DNA of 64,000 bases from Escherichia phage FL31: the sequence record PP400782; one strand, 5' to 3'. This document shows positions 44,566 to 55,166 of the stretch, piece after piece. The position numbers and the translations under genes are program-made. How positions within the stretch are numbered: position 1 is the first letter of the stretch; each line of letters begins with the position of its first letter. Under the pieces are notes generated by a model, which saw only the letters and a program-made list of their open reading frames with translations, was not told the origin of the DNA and searched no databases.

Positions 44566-45174
44566 TCAGTAACTGACAATAGTCAGATTCCAGATTGTAT
44601 AATTTCCATCTTGAATAATAGAATCTACACGCAGTGTAGTCCCTATAGGGAGCATAAATTCACATTCGTCAGATATAAGTCTAGCATTAGACCGTCTTGT
44701 CGCTTCAGGGAAAGCTCCATTGAACTCACAAGATGGCGCAGCCAGAATCATGTTAAGCATATGTTCACGGAAGTTGAAAGCAAATGGTGCATCTTTGATG
44801 CAGAACATATTAAATGTTCCGTAAAAATTATACGAAGCAAAGTTACGTGCTACACCGAACACTGGGCTGAAGCTCATTACTCTGTCAAATTTAATAATAC
44901 TACCAATGCCTTTATCATCGAGTGTGGCCATAGTTTTCTTAGAGATTCCACGATACATTGTCTCAGGAACAGAAGACGTCCAATTTCTACGAACGATTGA
45001 ACTTAACTCCTGTTGAATACAATCTGGCTTGTTTTCCATACACTGCCACAATACACTTTGTTCAATGTCGCTGAATTGACTATCAATTTCGTACTGCAAT
45101 ACATCTTGATATTCGGGGTTTTGAGCACGACGAACCATTTCTTCAATTTCACACTCGTTATACGGCATAAACAT
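44566..45174 (-). CDS. modA: ADP-ribosyltransferase, ModA/ModB family (modA position)
   Basis: R-S-E triad-like motifs: TMYRG, SFSPVF, ECEFMLP; about 200 aa; tandem with a paralog. Confidence 0.6.
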   Translation of the reverse strand: MFMPYNECEIEEMVRRAQNPEYQDVLQYEIDSQFSDIEQSVLWQCMENKPDCIQQELSSIVRRNWTSSVPETMYRGISKKTMATLDDKGIGSIIKFDRVMSFSPVFGVARNFASYNFYGTFNMFCIKDAPFAFNFREHMLNMILAAPSCEFNGAFPEATRRSNARLISDECEFMLPIGTTLRVDSIIQDGNYTIWNLTIVSY

Positions 45175-45231: not shown

Positions 45232-45813
45232 CTAAAAATTCAACATTTTCAAATGAATGATTTTGTATAATCTAGATAAAGGGTCATATTCTAAGTCTTC
45301 AATTTCCACAATCTCAAATCTAGAGATACCTGAGACCATGTACTCTTGTTCAGATTCAATCATATCTAGGACGTCAACACGCTTTTCTTCCATAACATGC
45401 TTAGGGTTCTTTCCGGCGAGTACAATGTTAATCATGTTTTGGTAGTAATCAAAAATGAATGGAGCATTCCTGAGACTAAGAATAGTGTACGTCTGATATT
45501 CCCATCTCCCAGAGAATTGACGAGCTGTACTGAAATCAGTTGTGAACGATGTTACTCGTCCAGGAGACCAATGGCATCCAACAGAAAGAAGAGAAAGACG
45601 TTCTACTTCTTCTGGAGTTACACCACGGTAGAGTTCTACTGGTACTGTAGAAGTCATATGCTTACGAACAAGATGGTCTAATTCATAGTGGAAATCCGGG
45701 TCTTCCTTAGAATCAGTGCAAGCCCAGAGAATGTTTTGTTCTTGGCGGGTGAATTTGCTATCAATAAGATTTGTTAGGTATTCACGTTCTTGAAGTTCAG
45801 ATTGACATGTCAT
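45232..45813 (-). CDS. modB: ADP-ribosyltransferase, ModA/ModB family (modB position)
   Basis: Motifs ELYRG, SFTTDFSTA, EQEYMVSG; 193 aa. Confidence 0.6.
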   Translation of the reverse strand: MTCQSELQEREYLTNLIDSKFTRQEQNILWACTDSKEDPDFHYELDHLVRKHMTSTVPVELYRGVTPEEVERLSLLSVGCHWSPGRVTSFTTDFSTARQFSGRWEYQTYTILSLRNAPFIFDYYQNMINIVLAGKNPKHVMEEKRVDVLDMIESEQEYMVSGISRFEIVEIEDLEYDPLSRLYKIIHLKMLNF

Positions 45814-49885: not shown

Positions 49886-50380
49886 TCACAACTTATTAAT
49901 ATTTACTTTAATTCGCTTTCTTTTCTTGGAAGGAATTTGTTCGGGACCTTTATTTACGACTGCACCTGTAGTAGTTCCTGATGCAATAGCTTGAGGACTG
50001 CCACCTGAATCACCAGCAACCATATCCTCAAATAAAGGGAGTTCTTTAAATATTTCTTTCTGCTGTTCTTCGGTAATGTTATAGCGTGAAGCTACAGCAC
50101 TCCAAGCAGACATCATTGAGGCCATTCCATTAAGACCTGGAACAGTGCTCATCATTCGCTTCATTGAACGAACTGAAGCATGAAAAGGTGTATAAGCCGC
50201 TTTCTCTTCAGGAGTGGAAGGGCGTTTAAGAACACTTCCACGTTCATCGATGATTTTGGCTTCGTATGCTTTCCATTCGGTAAAAGGTTTTTGCATTAGT
50301 CGAATAAACTTATATGCATAAACAGAATCTATTGCAGTGTTAATAATACCCATAGGTACCTCCTGAGTATATTTAATCAA
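49886..50380 (-). CDS. hypothetical protein (164 aa)
   Basis: ORF. Confidence 0.45.
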   Translation of the reverse strand: MIKYTQEVPMGIINTAIDSVYAYKFIRLMQKPFTEWKAYEAKIIDERGSVLKRPSTPEEKAAYTPFHASVRSMKRMMSTVPGLNGMASMMSAWSAVASRYNITEEQQKEIFKELPLFEDMVAGDSGGSPQAIASGTTTGAVVNKGPEQIPSKKRKRIKVNINKL

Positions 50381-50570
50381 TTACAAAGATTGCTTTGTCA
50401 CCATTTATATCTGTGACTTCATATGTAGTGCCTTCATACTGTGGAATATTCCAAATTACACCATCATTAGCTTTTACGCTAATATGGCATTGGTGTTTTG
50501 AAACAACTTCATAATCTTCAAAACTTGTAAAAACACTAATTTTAGAACCAGTGCAAATTGCAGTAGTCAT
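50373..50570 (-). CDS. hypothetical protein (65 aa)
   Basis: ORF. Confidence 0.3.
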   Translation of the reverse strand: MTTAICTGSKISVFTSFEDYEVVSKHQCHISVKANDGVIWNIPQYEGTTYEVTDINGDKAIFVID

Positions 50571-50571
50571 T

Positions 50572-51231
50572 TTAACCTCGATTCATAAATGCATTAAATA
50601 TTTGGTCATCAACAGAAATTTCTAATTCGACTTCAATTGCTTCAGCCTTTTCTTCAGGTGGTAATTCGTATCCACACACTACAATTTTTTCATCGATATC
50701 AAAATATACAGAAGCAATACGATTAATGTTATTTTCAGTTAAGTCCAAATCAACATCAACATCTTTTTGGCCTACACTTAGAGGATAACTAATACGGGTT
50801 ATTTTATTATCTTTAACAAAGAGTCCACCAACATACTCTGTACTGCGTTTGAAGTTTACACGTTTCCGAATTGAAAGATATGATACATCTTTACCGTGAG
50901 CTCGGCTCATAGGACATAATGAATAGCTAGAATAAGAGATGTCAAATCCTACACCTTCAATATGAGCCAACGCGTCATGATTAAACCAATTATAATCATA
51001 TGCCAAATCCATTATATTGTAATATGTGAAAGGCACTGGATTAACATCATATGTTGTACCTTTAAAATCAGCCCAGGCAACGATTTCGTTATCTTTAACA
51101 ATTACAAAAATTACACCAATATGGTATCCGTTATTATTTTCATTCGGCGTTATATTATAACATTGTGCATTAGGAAATTTACCATATTTAAATGGTGCGT
51201 TTTTGTGCATGTAATAAATCATATTATTCAC
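50572..51231 (-). CDS. hypothetical protein (219 aa)
   Basis: ORF. Confidence 0.45.
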   Translation of the reverse strand: MNNMIYYMHKNAPFKYGKFPNAQCYNITPNENNNGYHIGVIFVIVKDNEIVAWADFKGTTYDVNPVPFTYYNIMDLAYDYNWFNHDALAHIEGVGFDISYSSYSLCPMSRAHGKDVSYLSIRKRVNFKRSTEYVGGLFVKDNKITRISYPLSVGQKDVDVDLDLTENNINRIASVYFDIDEKIVVCGYELPPEEKAEAIEVELEISVDDQIFNAFMNRG

Positions 51232-51517
51232 CTGTGATTTCGGTTACGATATCTTTGTTATCGAAATTAGGGTCACAATACAAAACATAGTTGTACTGCA
51301 TAATACCGCCAGACTTAAGTTGTTCAACAACTTTATTAACCATGTTAGGACGGTCTCGTTTAGTGATGTTCATGATATCAGAGAAGATTTGTTGTTCAAC
51401 CTCTTCTTGATTTGCAGTCATTGACCACTCACAGAGGTCTTTATCATAACCTGCCGTAACTGGAGCCGGTGCACATGATACTGCAAGTAAGATTGCTGCC
51501 AATGATAACTTTTTCAT
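51224..51517 (-). CDS. hypothetical secreted/periplasmic protein (97 aa)
   Basis: N-terminal signal peptide MKKLSLAAILLAVSCAPAPVTA. Confidence 0.45.
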   Translation of the reverse strand: MKKLSLAAILLAVSCAPAPVTAGYDKDLCEWSMTANQEEVEQQIFSDIMNITKRDRPNMVNKVVEQLKSGGIMQYNYVLYCDPNFDNKDIVTEITGE

Positions 51518-51546
51518 TTTAACTCCTTAGTTGATTTGATAGGACT

Positions 51547-51576
51547 ACTATACTATAGTCCATCTATAATGTAAAC
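51547..51576 (-). promoter_or_regulatory. early promoter-like element (-35 GTTTAC, -10 TATAGT) with AGTCCTATCAAA box
   Basis: Minus strand GTTTACattatagatggactatagTATAGTagtcctatcaaatc. Confidence 0.4.
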
Positions 51577-51580
51577 AAGT

Positions 51581-51829
51581 TTATTCTTTTTCGCGAATAA
51601 TAATTACTTGTTGAGGCTGCTGAGCCGATTTCTTTTCGGCAACGATAGACCAAATTAAAGTTCCAATCCAACCAACCATCGTCCAGTTAAAGAGTAAAGA
51701 TACAAAGAAGATTGCTGTTGTGCTTTTTGTGCCACGAATAAGTGCGATTACCCAAGGCAACATGTAAATGATGATTGAACCAATACCTGCGATTAAAACT
51801 GCTACTGAACTAGCTACGAATAATTCCAT
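51581..51829 (-). CDS. superinfection immunity protein (Imm family) homolog
   Basis: 82 aa two-TM protein with LPWVIALIRG...AIFFVSLLFNWTMVGWIGTLIWSI, resembling the Imm-superinfection family motif. Confidence 0.55.
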   Translation of the reverse strand: MELFVASSVAVLIAGIGSIIIYMLPWVIALIRGTKSTTAIFFVSLLFNWTMVGWIGTLIWSIVAEKKSAQQPQQVIIIREKE

Positions 51830-51890
51830 GTTAATTTCCTCTTGATTTGTTATGTTTATAGTATCTTGTTTTAACTTTGGTGTAAACCAA

Positions 51891-52259
51891 TTAATTAAAT
51901 TTGTTTAAACGTTCAATACACTGGACGTAGTTATTCGCGATTTGTTTCTGGGTAGGCTCTTTACCAGTTGTTTCAACATAGCGAATGAATGCGATTTCAG
52001 TGGCCTGTAGACAATGTTCTTTAACGCGTTGTTCTTTTGACAATGCTACAGTATCAGAGTCACGATAACGTTGAGCATGGGCATCAGCTTGAATCATTCG
52101 ATTACCTACAGTAACCGGGTCTTCCACTTCAACTTTAGGTTGGTCATACTGTTTAACATTCGGATTGTAAATTAATTGGCCAACGTTATTAGGGATAAAG
52201 CCATGGGCACCACATCCGGTTAATCCAAATACCATTGCTAAAGCGATTAATTTTTTCAT
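51891..52259 (-). CDS. putative lipoprotein (122 aa)
   Basis: Signal peptide with lipobox LTGC. Confidence 0.5.
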   Translation of the reverse strand: MKKLIALAMVFGLTGCGAHGFIPNNVGQLIYNPNVKQYDQPKVEVEDPVTVGNRMIQADAHAQRYRDSDTVALSKEQRVKEHCLQATEIAFIRYVETTGKEPTQKQIANNYVQCIERLNKFN

Positions 52260-52287
52260 TTCAATTTCCTCTGTAGTTGATAGAAAG

Positions 52288-52317
52288 ATAGTAACACAGT
52301 ATGTGGTGCTTGTAAAC
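52288..52317 (-). promoter_or_regulatory. early promoter-like element (-35 GTTTAC, -10 TACTAT)
   Basis: Minus strand GTTTACaagcaccacatactgtgtTACTAT. Confidence 0.4.
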
Positions 52318-52330
52318 AGTTATTTTAAAA

Positions 52331-52540
52331 TTATTGAAAACCTGCTTCGAAAACTTTCTCGTCATTAATAAATGCTTTAACTAATGCTTTGTTCACTTCA
52401 GCAAGTTGTACCGTAACCCACTCGATTTCTTCGCGATCACCTGATAACATGATATCTTTAGTGAACATCTCACCGCTTTTAAACCAACCGATAAAAGTAA
52501 CTTTAGTTAATTTGCTCATATTTCCTCGCAAAATGCCCAT
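52331..52540 (-). CDS. hypothetical protein (69 aa); overlaps the end of the upstream ORF
   Basis: ORF only. Confidence 0.25.
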   Translation of the reverse strand: MGILRGNMSKLTKVTFIGWFKSGEMFTKDIMLSGDREEIEWVTVQLAEVNKALVKAFINDEKVFEAGFQ

Positions 52541-52833
52541 TCAGCGTGATAAACTGTAGCGCCTTTAGTATCATTCATTTGAACTACATCTACCGGAGAA
52601 ATTACTCGATAGAGACGTGGTTCACCTCCATAAGAGCGTGCTGCTCGTCCTGCATAAATCTTTGCTAAACCGATATCTTCAGTAAAGAATACACGATCCA
52701 AGTTTTTCTTACGTCCAGTTTCAGACAGAACTCCTGTTTCTTCAGGAGGACAAAGCATGTTTTCGATGTTAGCTGAACTACTTGAACCGTGATAAAAAAT
52801 CTTAAATTCTGCTTTACAATCGATGGTTTTCAT
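52516..52833 (-). CDS. small Arr-like (rifampin ADP-ribosyltransferase-like) domain protein
   Basis: FYHGSSS...RVFFTEDIGLAKIYAGRA...RLYRVISPVDV aligns by eye with recalled Arr motifs (FYHGT...IYFSALMEPAVWGAELA...YIYIVEP); from memory, not searched. Confidence 0.4.
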   Translation of the reverse strand: MKTIDCKAEFKIFYHGSSSSANIENMLCPPEETGVLSETGRKKNLDRVFFTEDIGLAKIYAGRAARSYGGEPRLYRVISPVDVVQMNDTKGATVYHAEWAFCEEI

Positions 52834-52859
52834 TTTGTTCTCCAGTAGTTGATAGGTCT

Positions 52860-52888
52860 ATAATAACACAACTACTGGAGAAGTAAAC
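52860..52888 (-). promoter_or_regulatory. early promoter-like element (-35 GTTTAC, -10 TATTAT) nested in an inverted repeat that includes the downstream SD
   Basis: Minus strand GTTTACttctccagtagttgtgtTATTATagacctatcaactactggagaacaaaATG. Confidence 0.45.
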
Positions 52889-53263
52889 TTAAAAACGTAA
52901 TTTAGATACATCTGCGTTGATTTCGGTTTGGTTTGCGTCGTATGCAATTAAACGAACCGCTTTAGATGGGTCATTCAATGCATAGAAATGATGGAACATT
53001 GCTCGAACGATATCACCATTTACGAGTTCTACCTGGATAGGAGAACCTTTTTCGAGTTGGAAATGTTCATAAGCTTTGATGGTTCGCAGATAATCAAGTT
53101 TTTGATTTCCGGCTCCAACAATTTGTACGATACGTTTGCCCATGTTTTCCATACGAGATACAATAGTTTTAGGAGCAAGAATAACGTAGGTTGCCAGCGG
53201 AGAAACTACTTCAACAGTTGTGTTTTCGGTGATTGCAGTAAAAATTGCTTGAGACATATTCAT
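52889..53263 (-). CDS. hypothetical protein (124 aa)
   Basis: ORF with AAGAGGAAAA SD. Confidence 0.45.
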   Translation of the reverse strand: MNMSQAIFTAITENTTVEVVSPLATYVILAPKTIVSRMENMGKRIVQIVGAGNQKLDYLRTIKAYEHFQLEKGSPIQVELVNGDIVRAMFHHFYALNDPSKAVRLIAYDANQTEINADVSKLRF

Positions 53264-53292
53264 AATGTTTTCCTCTTGGTTTGTGTAAGTAC

Positions 53293-53322
53293 ATCATATC
53301 ATGCCTAGAGGAAGATGTAAAC
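53293..53322 (-). promoter_or_regulatory. early promoter-like element (-35 GTTTAC, -10 TATGAT)
   Basis: Minus strand GTTTACatcttcctctaggcatgaTATGAT. Confidence 0.4.
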
Positions 53323-53345
53323 CCCGAAAGGAGACCGAAGTCTCC
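53320..53345 (-). terminator. UUCG hairpin/terminator after gene 41
   Basis: Minus strand ggagac-UUCG-gucucc followed by UUUCGGGGUUUAC (moderate U tract). Confidence 0.45.
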
Positions 53346-53351
53346 TTTTTA

Positions 53352-54794
53352 TTAAAATTTTAACTCATTGGCTAAGCTATCTAGGTCAGCACGTGTTGCT
53401 TTGGCTTTACCTACGCGTTCCGTACGATTCACCTCTGCCTGACGCATCTGAGCACCTGCGTTTTCATTTACTGTGTTAGGTGTGTTCATGCCTTCTTGCT
53501 CAATCTCAACCCATTTCTGGTTGCCTTTACGTACACCCATCAGGAATTTATTCCACTTATTCTTATCACCATATCGTGATTTGATTTGTTTGATAAGTTG
53601 TTGTTCAGCTTGTGCAAGTTCTTCGGTTTCAATTACAGCCAACATGAAATCTGCCGTTGCTGGTAAACCTGCTGATTCTGCGATATCACTCATGTTCATG
53701 TCTGAAGCATCCCATGCTGCACGTCCTACTTGAGCTGCAGTCCATAGAACTGTTTCAGATTCTACTGCTAATGCACGAAGTTCTTCTGCGATAGCTTTAA
53801 CTAATGTGTAGCTATTTTCAGTGTAAACTCTGATACGACAAGACCCACAAATACCTAAGTAATCAACCATGATTACAGATGGCACAAAGTTCTTCTTAAG
53901 TTTTAACTCATTAAGCAATGCACGAAATGTATTAGCGTTAGCTCCACCAGTAGGATACTGTTTAACTACTAAACGTCCTAATGTTGTTTTTGAACGCCAT
54001 TTTTCCATCTTGGCTTTATATTCAGCATAAGATACGTTACCATCATCGATATCATCGAGTGATACGTCAAGCATGTTTGCATCTATACGCTTAGCACAAA
54101 CTTCTTCAGCCATTTCCATGGAAATATAAAGAACATTATGACCTGTTTGAAGATAATCTGCAGCAAGTGAACAAAGGCCTAAAGATTTACCGACGTTAAC
54201 ACCGGCCATTAAAACGTTTAGTGTACCTGTTTCAGCACCACCTTTAGTGATTTTATTCAAAATGTTTAATTTGAACGGGACCTTACGTGCTTTATTTAGA
54301 TAAGAAAGCCAGCGTGCTTCGTAGTCTTCCATCCAGTCATGTCCAACATAACTATCGAACGAAATTGAAAGTGCTTGACGCATAATATCAGGAATAGCTC
54401 CTACGTCAGGCATTTTCTTGTTACGTTGTTCTGGAGGTAGTTCAGCATTAGACTGAATCTCAATGATTTTGGACGTAGCATTATACATCGCTTTTTGCTG
54501 GACATATTTCTCAGTTTCTTTAACCAACCATTCGTGGTCTTCAGGAGTATCAGCCAATTTTTCAATTAGGTCTGAAGTTCCTTTATATTCGGCTTCAGTT
54601 AAAGAACTGTTATCTAAAGCCACCTTTAACGCATTGATAGATGGCATTGCATTATATTCGTTAACGTGGCTCTTTATAATTTTAAAGACATTTTTTGCCG
54701 GTCCACGCTCAAAATACTCAGAATCCATATAAGGCCAGACCTTAGAAAAATAAGCCTGGTCATATACTAGATGAGACAAAATAATTTCTACCAC
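53352..54794 (-). CDS. 41: replicative DNA helicase gp41 (DnaB-like)
   Basis: 480 aa; Walker A GVNVGKS; DnaB-family helicase motifs; synteny. Confidence 0.95.
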   Translation of the reverse strand: MVEIILSHLVYDQAYFSKVWPYMDSEYFERGPAKNVFKIIKSHVNEYNAMPSINALKVALDNSSLTEAEYKGTSDLIEKLADTPEDHEWLVKETEKYVQQKAMYNATSKIIEIQSNAELPPEQRNKKMPDVGAIPDIMRQALSISFDSYVGHDWMEDYEARWLSYLNKARKVPFKLNILNKITKGGAETGTLNVLMAGVNVGKSLGLCSLAADYLQTGHNVLYISMEMAEEVCAKRIDANMLDVSLDDIDDGNVSYAEYKAKMEKWRSKTTLGRLVVKQYPTGGANANTFRALLNELKLKKNFVPSVIMVDYLGICGSCRIRVYTENSYTLVKAIAEELRALAVESETVLWTAAQVGRAAWDASDMNMSDIAESAGLPATADFMLAVIETEELAQAEQQLIKQIKSRYGDKNKWNKFLMGVRKGNQKWVEIEQEGMNTPNTVNENAGAQMRQAEVNRTERVGKAKATRADLDSLANELKF

Positions 54795-54803
54795 GATAAC
54801 TCC

Positions 54804-55166
54804 TTAAAAGAATTTAAATTTTTTCTTGGTCCGTTCATTAAAAGCTTGTTGTACTTGCATTGTAACACATTTTTCAACATGTGGTGCAAGTTCTGCTTTT
54901 CTGTCCTGGTCAAGAACTGCAAAGTCCATTACGATTTTACCATCAACCCAGTCTAGTTTTGTAATATAGACTATATGATGAGAACCATCTTCAAGCGTAA
55001 TCAGAATCTCTTGAATGACATTTTCCATTGCTGAACGGACAATTTTAAGAGATTCATTAAACACTCGTTCTTTGCGAATGTCTTCCCCTTCCGAAGAAGG
55101 GGATTCATCAACGATTTCTAGATTTAAATCATCGAGATTATTCATCGAAATCTTCCATTTCGTCAA
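54804..55166 (-). CDS. 40: gp40 (head vertex assembly protein) by position
   Basis: 120 aa ORF between uvsX and 41, as in T4; no motif-level confirmation. Confidence 0.5.
   Translation of the reverse strand: MTKWKISMNNLDDLNLEIVDESPSSEGEDIRKERVFNESLKIVRSAMENVIQEILITLEDGSHHIVYITKLDWVDGKIVMDFAVLDQDRKAELAPHVEKCVTMQVQQAFNERTKKKFKFF

Follow-up and report, generated by a model that had tools for sequence, protein, structure and literature searches.

A small gene between gene 41 and dmd

The stretch of 64,000 nucleotides from Escherichia phage FL31 analysed here (sequence record PP400782, hereafter the window) belongs to a T4-like phage (Tequatrovirus) and carries on its minus strand, at 52516-52833, a 105-codon open reading frame (ORF) whose product we predict to be a minimal ADP-ribosyltransferase (ART). 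Gene and protein are referred to below as the ART gene and the ART protein. The ORF runs from an ATG at 52833-52831 to a TGA. In translation, the protein starts MKTIDCKAEFKIFYHGSSSS, with F13-Y14-H15-G16-S17 within; this is the FYHG[ST] motif from which an earlier note on this DNA had proposed a domain resembling the rifampin ADP-ribosyltransferase Arr. A Shine-Dalgarno (SD) sequence GGAG can be read 6 nt 5′ of the ATG (52840-52843, minus strand), and GGAG(A) is also present upstream of the gene at related loci. The protein matches PHROG 2110, a family of unknown function, from end to end (E 3e-60), and tblastn located the gene in 609 phage records, in 605 of them at a coverage of at least 80%. 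All neighbours lie on the same strand and form a tight minus-strand cluster. Because of this same-strand arrangement, the SD site, the PHROG match, the number of records and a low ratio of nonsynonymous to synonymous substitution (dN/dS), the ORF is a genuine gene and not a chance reading frame.

Over the 4.6 kb from 50300 to 54900, Shigella phage JK45 and the E. coli O157 typing phages match the window at ~99% identity. The JK45 counterpart of the ART gene is KMC32_gp036, which is labelled “hypothetical protein”. Along the minus strand the cluster reads gene 41 helicase (53352-54794), an ORF of 124 amino acids (52889-53263), ART, dmd (52331-52519), a DUF5481 lipoprotein, an Imm-like membrane protein, spackle, AdfA/61.2 and 61.1. 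The dmd gene, also annotated as such in JK45, encodes the antitoxin against RnlA and LsoA (Pfam Dmd, E 2.6e-20). T4 possesses neither the ART gene nor the 124-aa ORF, and its gene 41 is followed directly by dmd; the two genes thus represent an indel within the genus.

Distribution and selection

The phages with an ART gene found by tblastn infect Escherichia, Klebsiella, Acinetobacter, Aeromonas, Enterobacter, Vibrio and other hosts. Searching 5.8 billion proteins with the ART protein retrieved highly similar small proteins only, with at least 62% identity among the best 120, and the close alignment of 27 T4-like sequences has a mean column identity of 69%. When compared with diverged relatives, the gene shows a dN/dS of ~ 0.1, with a nonsynonymous divergence (dN) of 0.08-0.17 at a synonymous divergence (pS) of 0.47-0.75. 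For the same genome pairs dN amounts to 0.24-0.28 in the gp41 helicase and to 0.25-0.42 in Dmd, the value for ART being about one third to two-thirds of that for gp41. In one genome pair the proteins are 89.5% (ART), 67.9% (gp41) and 44.8% (Dmd) identical. Purifying selection on ART is real and at least as strong as on the gp41 helicase. In the closest pairs the pS of ART is somewhat below that of gp41, so that T4-like phages may to some extent have exchanged the gene laterally. Recent horizontal transfer as the sole cause of the conservation, however, is ruled out by the far-diverged synonymous sites.

A pattern scan of 185,579 species-representative genomes (GTDB), restricted to close relatives, gave only five loci. 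Three of them resemble T4-like phage contigs, two of ~170 kb and one a short fragment, and two belong to Patescibacteria. PADLOC yielded no match for the ART protein. On account of these two results the close ART family is essentially an effector domain of phages and mobile genetic elements (MGE). The distant stand-alone homologues that were looked up in bacteria lie on contigs of less than 1 kb. The two Patescibacteria loci, both in metagenome-assembled genomes (L072, 4902-5348; L073, 4923-5354), encode stand-alone homologues of 143-148 amino acids with ~50% identity; one adjoins an insertion-sequence transposase, and the neighbours are otherwise uninformative.

Relationship to Arr

Taken alone, the ART protein has no match in Pfam at E ≤ 1 and none in NCBIfam or the PDB (phmmer), and a profile of its close relatives likewise gave no match in the PDB. 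Homology to Arr surfaced only once the profile was broadened with distant representatives. With the close-family profile, HMMER collected 218 relatives from 1.84 billion cluster representatives. The Pfam family Arr-ms (PF12120) is matched by 18 of 53 stand-alone and by 32 of 56 multidomain relatives, and individual relatives exceed its gathering score of 25 bits (31.5, 29.4, 27.5 and 26.9 bits), the match spanning positions 1-67 of the 99 profile positions only. A profile built from 53 diverse stand-alone members and searched against the whole PDB hit Arr chains only (2HW2 and 9IAF, E 0.0015; ARR-2 9IBA, E 0.021). When the family profile was compared with an alignment of true Arr proteins by hhalign, the probability was 95.9% (E 6.3e-9, 74 columns), with residues 4-83 of ART paired with residues 11-88 of Arr-2. 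The earlier note had made its proposal depend on a significant profile match to Arr/KptA-like ARTs, and the PDB search and the hhalign comparison provide one. Its alignment by eye is borne out for residues 4-83 and does not extend to the last ~22 residues. Judged by these profile comparisons, the N-terminal 80 residues of ART are homologous to Arr, and the relationship holds as a genuine one at the superfamily level.

The AlphaFold2 model of the ART protein has a single domain with a mean predicted local distance difference test (pLDDT) score of 83.8 and a predicted template modelling score of 0.75; the loop 36-40 alone falls below a pLDDT of 50. The model has the split β-sheet of ARTs, and the predicted fold is an ART fold. 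Foldseek ranked Arr first in the PDB with a probability of 1.0, and in BFVD it returned two close family members followed by a 94-aa viral “Ms Rifampin ADP-ribosyl transferase”.

Both Arr (PF12120; 2HW2, 9IAF, 9IBA) and the phage protein are very small stand-alone ARTs that share the succession [FY]-[YL]-H-G-[ST], G-D-x-L-x-P, E-x-G-R, [VI]-[YF]-[FI]-[ST], a helix and G-x-x-x-[VI]-[YF]-x-V-x-P-x-G. They differ in length, with 140-150 amino acids in Arr and 105 in the phage protein, which is devoid of the C-terminal ~60 residues of Arr including the FEDDPNLTNK block. The phage family carries a G-R-K-K-N-L-D insertion that is missing in Arr, and the His which in Arr stands two residues before Y49 is replaced by K/R47. 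Finally, Arr occurs in resistance integrons and actinobacterial chromosomes, whereas the phage family is found in phages.

Conserved residues and candidate catalytic residues

Conservation across the family was determined from 98 representatives, each of which stands for one cluster at 50% identity. H15 and G16 are present in all 98, and position 17 is T in 87 and S in 11. In the following region P29 (92 of 98), P30 (90), T33 (88), E38 (95), R41 (94), K43 (84) and N44 (82) are conserved. F49 is found in 95 representatives and replaced by Y in three; T51 (95), A57 (97), Y60 (97), A61 (96), R63 (82, with K in a further 13), G69 (96), G70 (94) and G91 (93) complete the pattern. The phage family has the signature S-E-K-G-R-K-K-N-L-D-[KR]-V-F-F-T, in which E-x-G-R recurs; this motif, in the form E-[AD]-G-R, and H-G-T are common to the phage family and Arr. 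Both NAD-binding motifs of ARTs, H-G-[ST] in strand 1 and aromatic-x-[ST] in strand 2, are present, and Y60 follows F49 after 11 residues. Diphtheria toxin has the arrangement H21/Y54/Y65, in which the spacing of Y54 and Y65 is the same as that of F49 and Y60. A Phe at the position of the first Tyr also occurs in AcrIF11, a proven ART with the key residues H-F-H-D (PMC11383003).

The candidate positions of a catalytic carboxylate are less uniform. E103 in the last strand is invariant in the alignment of 27 T4-like sequences and not conserved among distant relatives; as a universal catalytic Glu it was therefore rejected, being confined to the T4-like subclade. At family position 84 an acid is found in 57 of 102 distant relatives, and this position aligns by motif with the Glu of Arr in P-x-G-x-[IF]-E. 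An acid is thus present at position 84 or at position 103, the latter in nearly all members of the T4-like clade; sequences with an acid at each of the two positions are occasional. This pattern suggests that the catalytic carboxylate may have shifted from one position to the other in the course of the family's evolution. E38 is the sole acid that is kept family-wide.

Multidomain relatives

While the ART protein of the window stands alone, the domain is in its relatives often built into very large proteins, the longest of which has 3924 amino acids. In the 56 multidomain relatives the partner domains comprise ART-PolyVal (eight proteins), DUF7178, NUDIX, GNAT, Toprim, LPD23, CHAP and ddrB-ParB, and further a lambda-type portal, a tape measure protein and a 2H/Acb1-like phosphoesterase. 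Domains that mark a polyvalent effector (LPD, ART-PolyVal or virion domains) accompany the relatives only. Such partners make up the repertoire of polyvalent proteins, which are thought to be injected together with DNA by phages and conjugative elements (PMC9503650). The ART domain hence also serves as a building block of giant phage proteins that are polyvalent or associated with the virion.

The jumbo-phage contig IMGVR_UViG_3300026078_000017 (L062, 2431-4920) encodes a protein of 288 amino acids whose C-terminal domain is Arr-like. The gene of this protein is followed by that of a Thg1-like tRNA 5′-end repair enzyme and faced by an ADP-ribosylglycohydrolase gene. This set may be a cassette for reversible ADP-ribosylation or for RNA repair.

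Possible acceptors and alternatives to catalysis

The earlier note aligned the protein with the Arr family. What stands of this is an ART-fold domain with Arr as nearest relative in sequence; membership in the functional family of rifampin ARTs is not supported. In the NCBIfam equivalog for rifampin ARTs (NF033144, rifampin_ARR) the ART protein has no match at E ≤ 0.1, and at a cut-off of 130 bits distant relatives score 26 bits compared with 217.8 bits for a true Arr-2. The homology ends at ART residue 83, and the FEDDPNLTNK-x-F-x-GN block and the ~55 residues of Arr that follow it are without counterpart. The key residues of Arr-ms are His19, Tyr49 and Asp84, the last of which we take to lie in the FEDDPNLTNK block. 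In ART the His is kept, Tyr49 has become Phe49 and the aligned region stops before the FEDDPN block. Because of the failed equivalog test, the missing C-terminal half with its FEDDPN block and the replacement of Tyr49 by Phe, the ART protein is not an orthologue of Arr, and by the same sequence features it is unlikely to be a rifampicin-resistance enzyme. Within the ART superfamily it is probably sister to the Arr family, in the Arr/KptA-like branch.

An Arr-type activity on small molecules could nevertheless be imagined, in which a rifamycin-like or other inhibitor or an immune signalling nucleotide would be inactivated and phage transcription shielded. Arr is the closest relative in sequence, and T4-like phages rely on the RNA polymerase of the host, the enzyme at which rifamycins act. 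Apart from the equivalog test, this is opposed by the loss of the C-terminal half of Arr with its invariant FEDDPNLTNK...W...H residues and by the embedding of the domain in injected polyvalent proteins, which argues for an intracellular conflict between macromolecules rather than for detoxification of a drug. We regard a small-molecule acceptor of this kind as very unlikely.

Equally improbable in our view is a non-catalytic protein that binds NAD+ or an ADP-ribose derivative and serves as a sponge for NAD-derived immune signals or as a regulator. The very small size, the lack of a canonical catalytic Glu kept throughout the family and the fact that the conserved residues are mostly those expected at NAD+ would agree with it. 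However, the domain is a single-copy module beside other enzymes in injected polyvalent proteins, to which catalysis fits better than stoichiometric sequestration, and E38, R41 and R63 are kept across the wider family in addition to the invariant E103 of the T4-like clade.

Tpt1/KptA (9LD3, 7KW9) shares with the phage protein the Y-H-G-T motif in strand 1, the likeness being limited to the NAD lobe; its N-terminal RNA-binding lobe and its Arg-His-Arg-Arg tetrad are missing from the phage protein. The Pfam Tpt1 family (PTS_2-RNA) is matched neither by the ART protein at E ≤ 1 nor by the 53 relatives at E ≤ 0.01. Like Tpt1/KptA, DarT or CmdT, the protein might still modify a phosphate or base of RNA or DNA and, for instance, repair or mask RNA ends produced by host RNase toxins alongside Dmd. 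With 105 amino acids it is too short for the N-terminal RNA lobe of Tpt1, which bears three of the four catalytic residues of that enzyme. The basic G-R-K-K-N loop is kept across the family, although the protein as a whole has a slight acidic excess (15 D/E versus 13 K/R). In one relative the domain is joined to a 2H phosphoesterase, and another relative stands beside the Thg1-like enzyme and the ADP-ribosylglycohydrolase, but these RNA-repair contexts are single cases among more than 50 architectures. The gene adjoins dmd, and RNA substrates have been the subject of speculation before (Iyer et al., PMC9503650). Taking both sides together, we judge a nucleic-acid acceptor unlikely, though less so than the two preceding possibilities.

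Predicted early expression

The ART gene is preceded by a putative T4-type early (σ70-like) promoter at 52860-52887 (minus strand), with TTTACT (preceded by G and thus also readable as GTTTAC), a spacer of 16 nt and a TG-extended TATTAT. This consensus match sits exactly within the 55-nt intergenic gap, and transcription would start at ~52853. Comparable sites lie in front of the 124-aa ORF, the lipoprotein gene and the imm-like gene. Each intergenic gap of the early cluster thus contains a match to GTTTAC-N16/17-TAnnAT (52838-52887, 53293-53345, 52288-52316 and 51858-51886, all minus strand).

The promoter is surrounded by a perfect 14-bp inverted repeat (52838-52851 and 52869-52882, minus strand), whose 3′ arm holds the GGAG. 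Folded as RNA, the repeat pairs the SD region with the promoter spacer at a ΔG of -22.1 kcal/mol (z -4.4; none of 200 shuffled sequences was as stable). Transcripts from the internal promoter lack the 5′ arm, and the hairpin would therefore form on read-through transcripts only. On RNA reading through from gene 41 the SD sequence would be hidden and the gene translationally silent, while promoter-initiated RNA would be active. We infer from this layout that the SD-hiding hairpin would confine translation of ART to the early phase. A shorter and weaker UCUCC/GGAGA pairing recurs at related loci, the 124-aa ORF has a weaker version of the same promoter-in-hairpin layout, and in T4 the dmd promoter (L074, 3055-3112) also lies inside a hairpin, of 12 bp.

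The longest ORF of dmd (52331-52540) begins inside the ART gene, whereas the Pfam and PHROG Dmd matches begin at residues 8-11. The true start of dmd is most likely M8, with the ATG at 52519-52517, so positioned that the stop codon of ART overlaps it as ATGA (52516-52519). On the grounds of the Dmd match positions and of this overlap, ART and dmd would constitute an immediate-early bicistron and are most likely a translationally coupled unit. Three features together point to expression of ART very early in infection: the putative promoter, the hairpin that would mask the SD sequence and the overlap with the immediate-early dmd. Within the coding sequence of ART (52731-52748, minus strand) a terminator-like hairpin is followed by a weak T-tract; the count of such structures equals the expectation from shuffled sequence, and this one is probably due to chance.

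Association with Dmd

A predicted ART adjoining dmd has been described from computational work in phages of Escherichia, Shigella and Salmonella and interpreted as part of a toxin-antitoxin pair (Iyer et al. 2022, PMC9503650). The “p0068-family” ART of Iyer, Burroughs, Anantharaman and Aravind (Viruses 14:1977) is almost certainly the same gene, as it matches by description: it lies directly upstream of dmd in T4-like phages of the same three hosts. p0068-like ARTs are listed there among the most frequent viral ARTs, and the family is placed in the H-Y-[EDQ] clade, whereas our profile and fold tests find Arr and Tpt1 nearest. In the records of Klebsiella phage KLB31, Pantoea phage Phynn and Vibrio phage 501E54-1, homologues are labelled ADP-ribosyl transferases. 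The ART annotation as such is therefore already known from the literature and from some GenBank records.

According to the toxin-antitoxin proposal, ART would be the toxin of a phage type II pair and Dmd the antitoxin that binds and neutralises it. It was put forward in section 3.7.1 of PMC9503650, where it is also pointed out that certain Klebsiella phages have a Mod-like ART in this place beside dmd. The ATGA overlap of the ART stop with the dmd start resembles that of many toxin-antitoxin operons, but overlapping genes are normal in T4-like genomes. In contrast to what an obligate pair would require, the gene 3′ of ART is Dmd (by Pfam) at only 11 of 66 loci, or in 4 of 34 distinct neighbour proteins. 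Elsewhere this position is taken by a membrane protein of 55-60 amino acids, a Cys-rich acidic protein of 41-46 amino acids, a lipoprotein, a spackle-like protein, a GIY-YIG endonuclease and others. ART proteins that are each 89.5% identical to that of the window adjoin Dmd variants with 45% or 66% identity to the Dmd of the window, so that there is no sign of co-evolution between the two. In addition, T4 carries dmd without ART, and Dmd has its own established role against RnlA and LsoA. Neither conserved adjacency nor co-variation of ART and Dmd was thus found in the 66 loci, the identity pairs and T4. The two genes appear to be associated by their common location in the hyperplastic early region 3′ of gene 41 and not as an obligate pair, and the link to Dmd required by the toxin-antitoxin reading is not supported here. 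A functional link between the two may still exist. We consider that reading improbable, about as much so as a nucleic-acid acceptor or marginally more.

Functional proposal

We propose that the ART protein is probably a stand-alone minimal ART with a core of ~93 residues, that is, a predicted immediate-early, NAD+-dependent mono-ADP-ribosyltransferase directed at the host. NAD+ would be bound by H15-G16-S17 in strand 1, by F49-x-T51 in strand 2 and by Y60 in the following helix, and a carboxylate would assist catalysis, with E103 as candidate in the T4-like clade and E38 as the acid conserved family-wide. During the first minutes of infection a single ADP-ribose would be transferred to a conserved host component, and the protein would act as an effector of host takeover or counter-defence. 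The strong purifying selection and the recurrence of the domain in injected polyvalent proteins suggest that the target is important and conserved.

Several points weigh against this proposal. The link from ART to Arr is made by profiles and is transitive, with no direct sequence match in Pfam, NCBIfam or the PDB. No acid at the canonical position in strand 5 is conserved across the family, E103 being restricted to the T4-like subclade, and E38 lies in the loop modelled at a pLDDT below 50. The structurally closest characterised enzymes, Tpt1 and Arr, have non-protein acceptors (RNA and a small molecule, respectively), and similarity therefore does not favour a protein target. The promoter is a consensus match of which the region contains seven examples, compared with 5.0 ± 2.3 in shuffled sequence, so that the argument for it rests on position and not on number. 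Furthermore, we found no experimental study of the ART protein in the literature, probably because the gene is absent from T4.

Small phage ARTs with a role in counter-defence have a proven precedent in AcrIF11 (6KYF, 8DWQ), which is an anti-CRISPR protein and like the ART protein a small stand-alone ART of phages or MGE with Phe in place of the first Tyr. No sequence relationship between the two was detected, and the helical target-recognition region of AcrIF11 is absent from the phage protein. AcrIF11 also evolves fast, with homologues of ~27% similarity, whereas the phage family is at least 62% identical across host genera. T4 Alt, ModA and ModB are phage ARTs as well that hit host targets at the start of infection, but they belong to the R-S-E clade (YRG / S-F-[ST] / E-x-E), are twice as large and share no sequence similarity with the ART protein. 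The window itself encodes ModA-like and ModB-like ARTs of the R-S-E clade at 44566-45174 and 45232-45813, ~7 kb from the ART gene, and the expectation in the earlier note of a further ART type beside Mod-like enzymes agrees with this. T4 Alt is reported to modify the toxin MazF (mentioned in 10.1101/2025.11.20.689424); an ART that acts on an RNase toxin beside Dmd would thus have a precedent.

For the role of ADP-ribosylation in host takeover, T4-like phages with their enzymes Alt, ModA and ModB have been the classic model. The ART protein would add a mechanistically different enzyme in more than 600 sequenced phages of Escherichia, Klebsiella, Acinetobacter, Aeromonas and Vibrio. Knowing its acceptor would define the activity of an uncharacterised Arr/KptA-like branch and would put the toxin-antitoxin proposal to the test. 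Going further, we tentatively speculate, with little confidence, that the protein is the smallest self-sufficient ART known (core of ~93 residues) and at least as conserved as the replicative helicase because its acceptor is a non-protein or core host component such as an RNA end, a nucleotide second messenger or a universal component of translation or transcription. It would then act together with Dmd in the first minutes of infection and blunt RNA-targeting abortive infection. If true, this would represent a new class of ART substrates in phage counter-defence.

Further genes of the cluster

The 124-aa ORF upstream of ART (52889-53263, minus strand) belongs to PHROG 10668 with unassigned function and gave no informative match in Pfam, NCBIfam or PADLOC. 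It is kept in the closest relatives, while other relatives carry a different ORF of 100 amino acids in its place. Between sp and dmd the window encodes an 82-aa membrane protein of the Imm_superinfect family (51581-51829, minus strand) and the 122-aa DUF5481 lipoprotein (51891-52259, minus strand). In T4 the same interval contains the 85-aa 61.4 alone, which makes it a second indel relative to T4. The 61.2 homologue (50572-51231, minus strand) matches Pfam AdfA (anti-DarT factor A) with E 2e-119; in AdfA, His versus Arg at one position decides on the neutralisation of DarT1. Within 2.3 kb the cluster thereby holds AdfA, Dmd and ART, all known or suspected in counter-defence, together with spackle and the Imm-like protein of superinfection exclusion.

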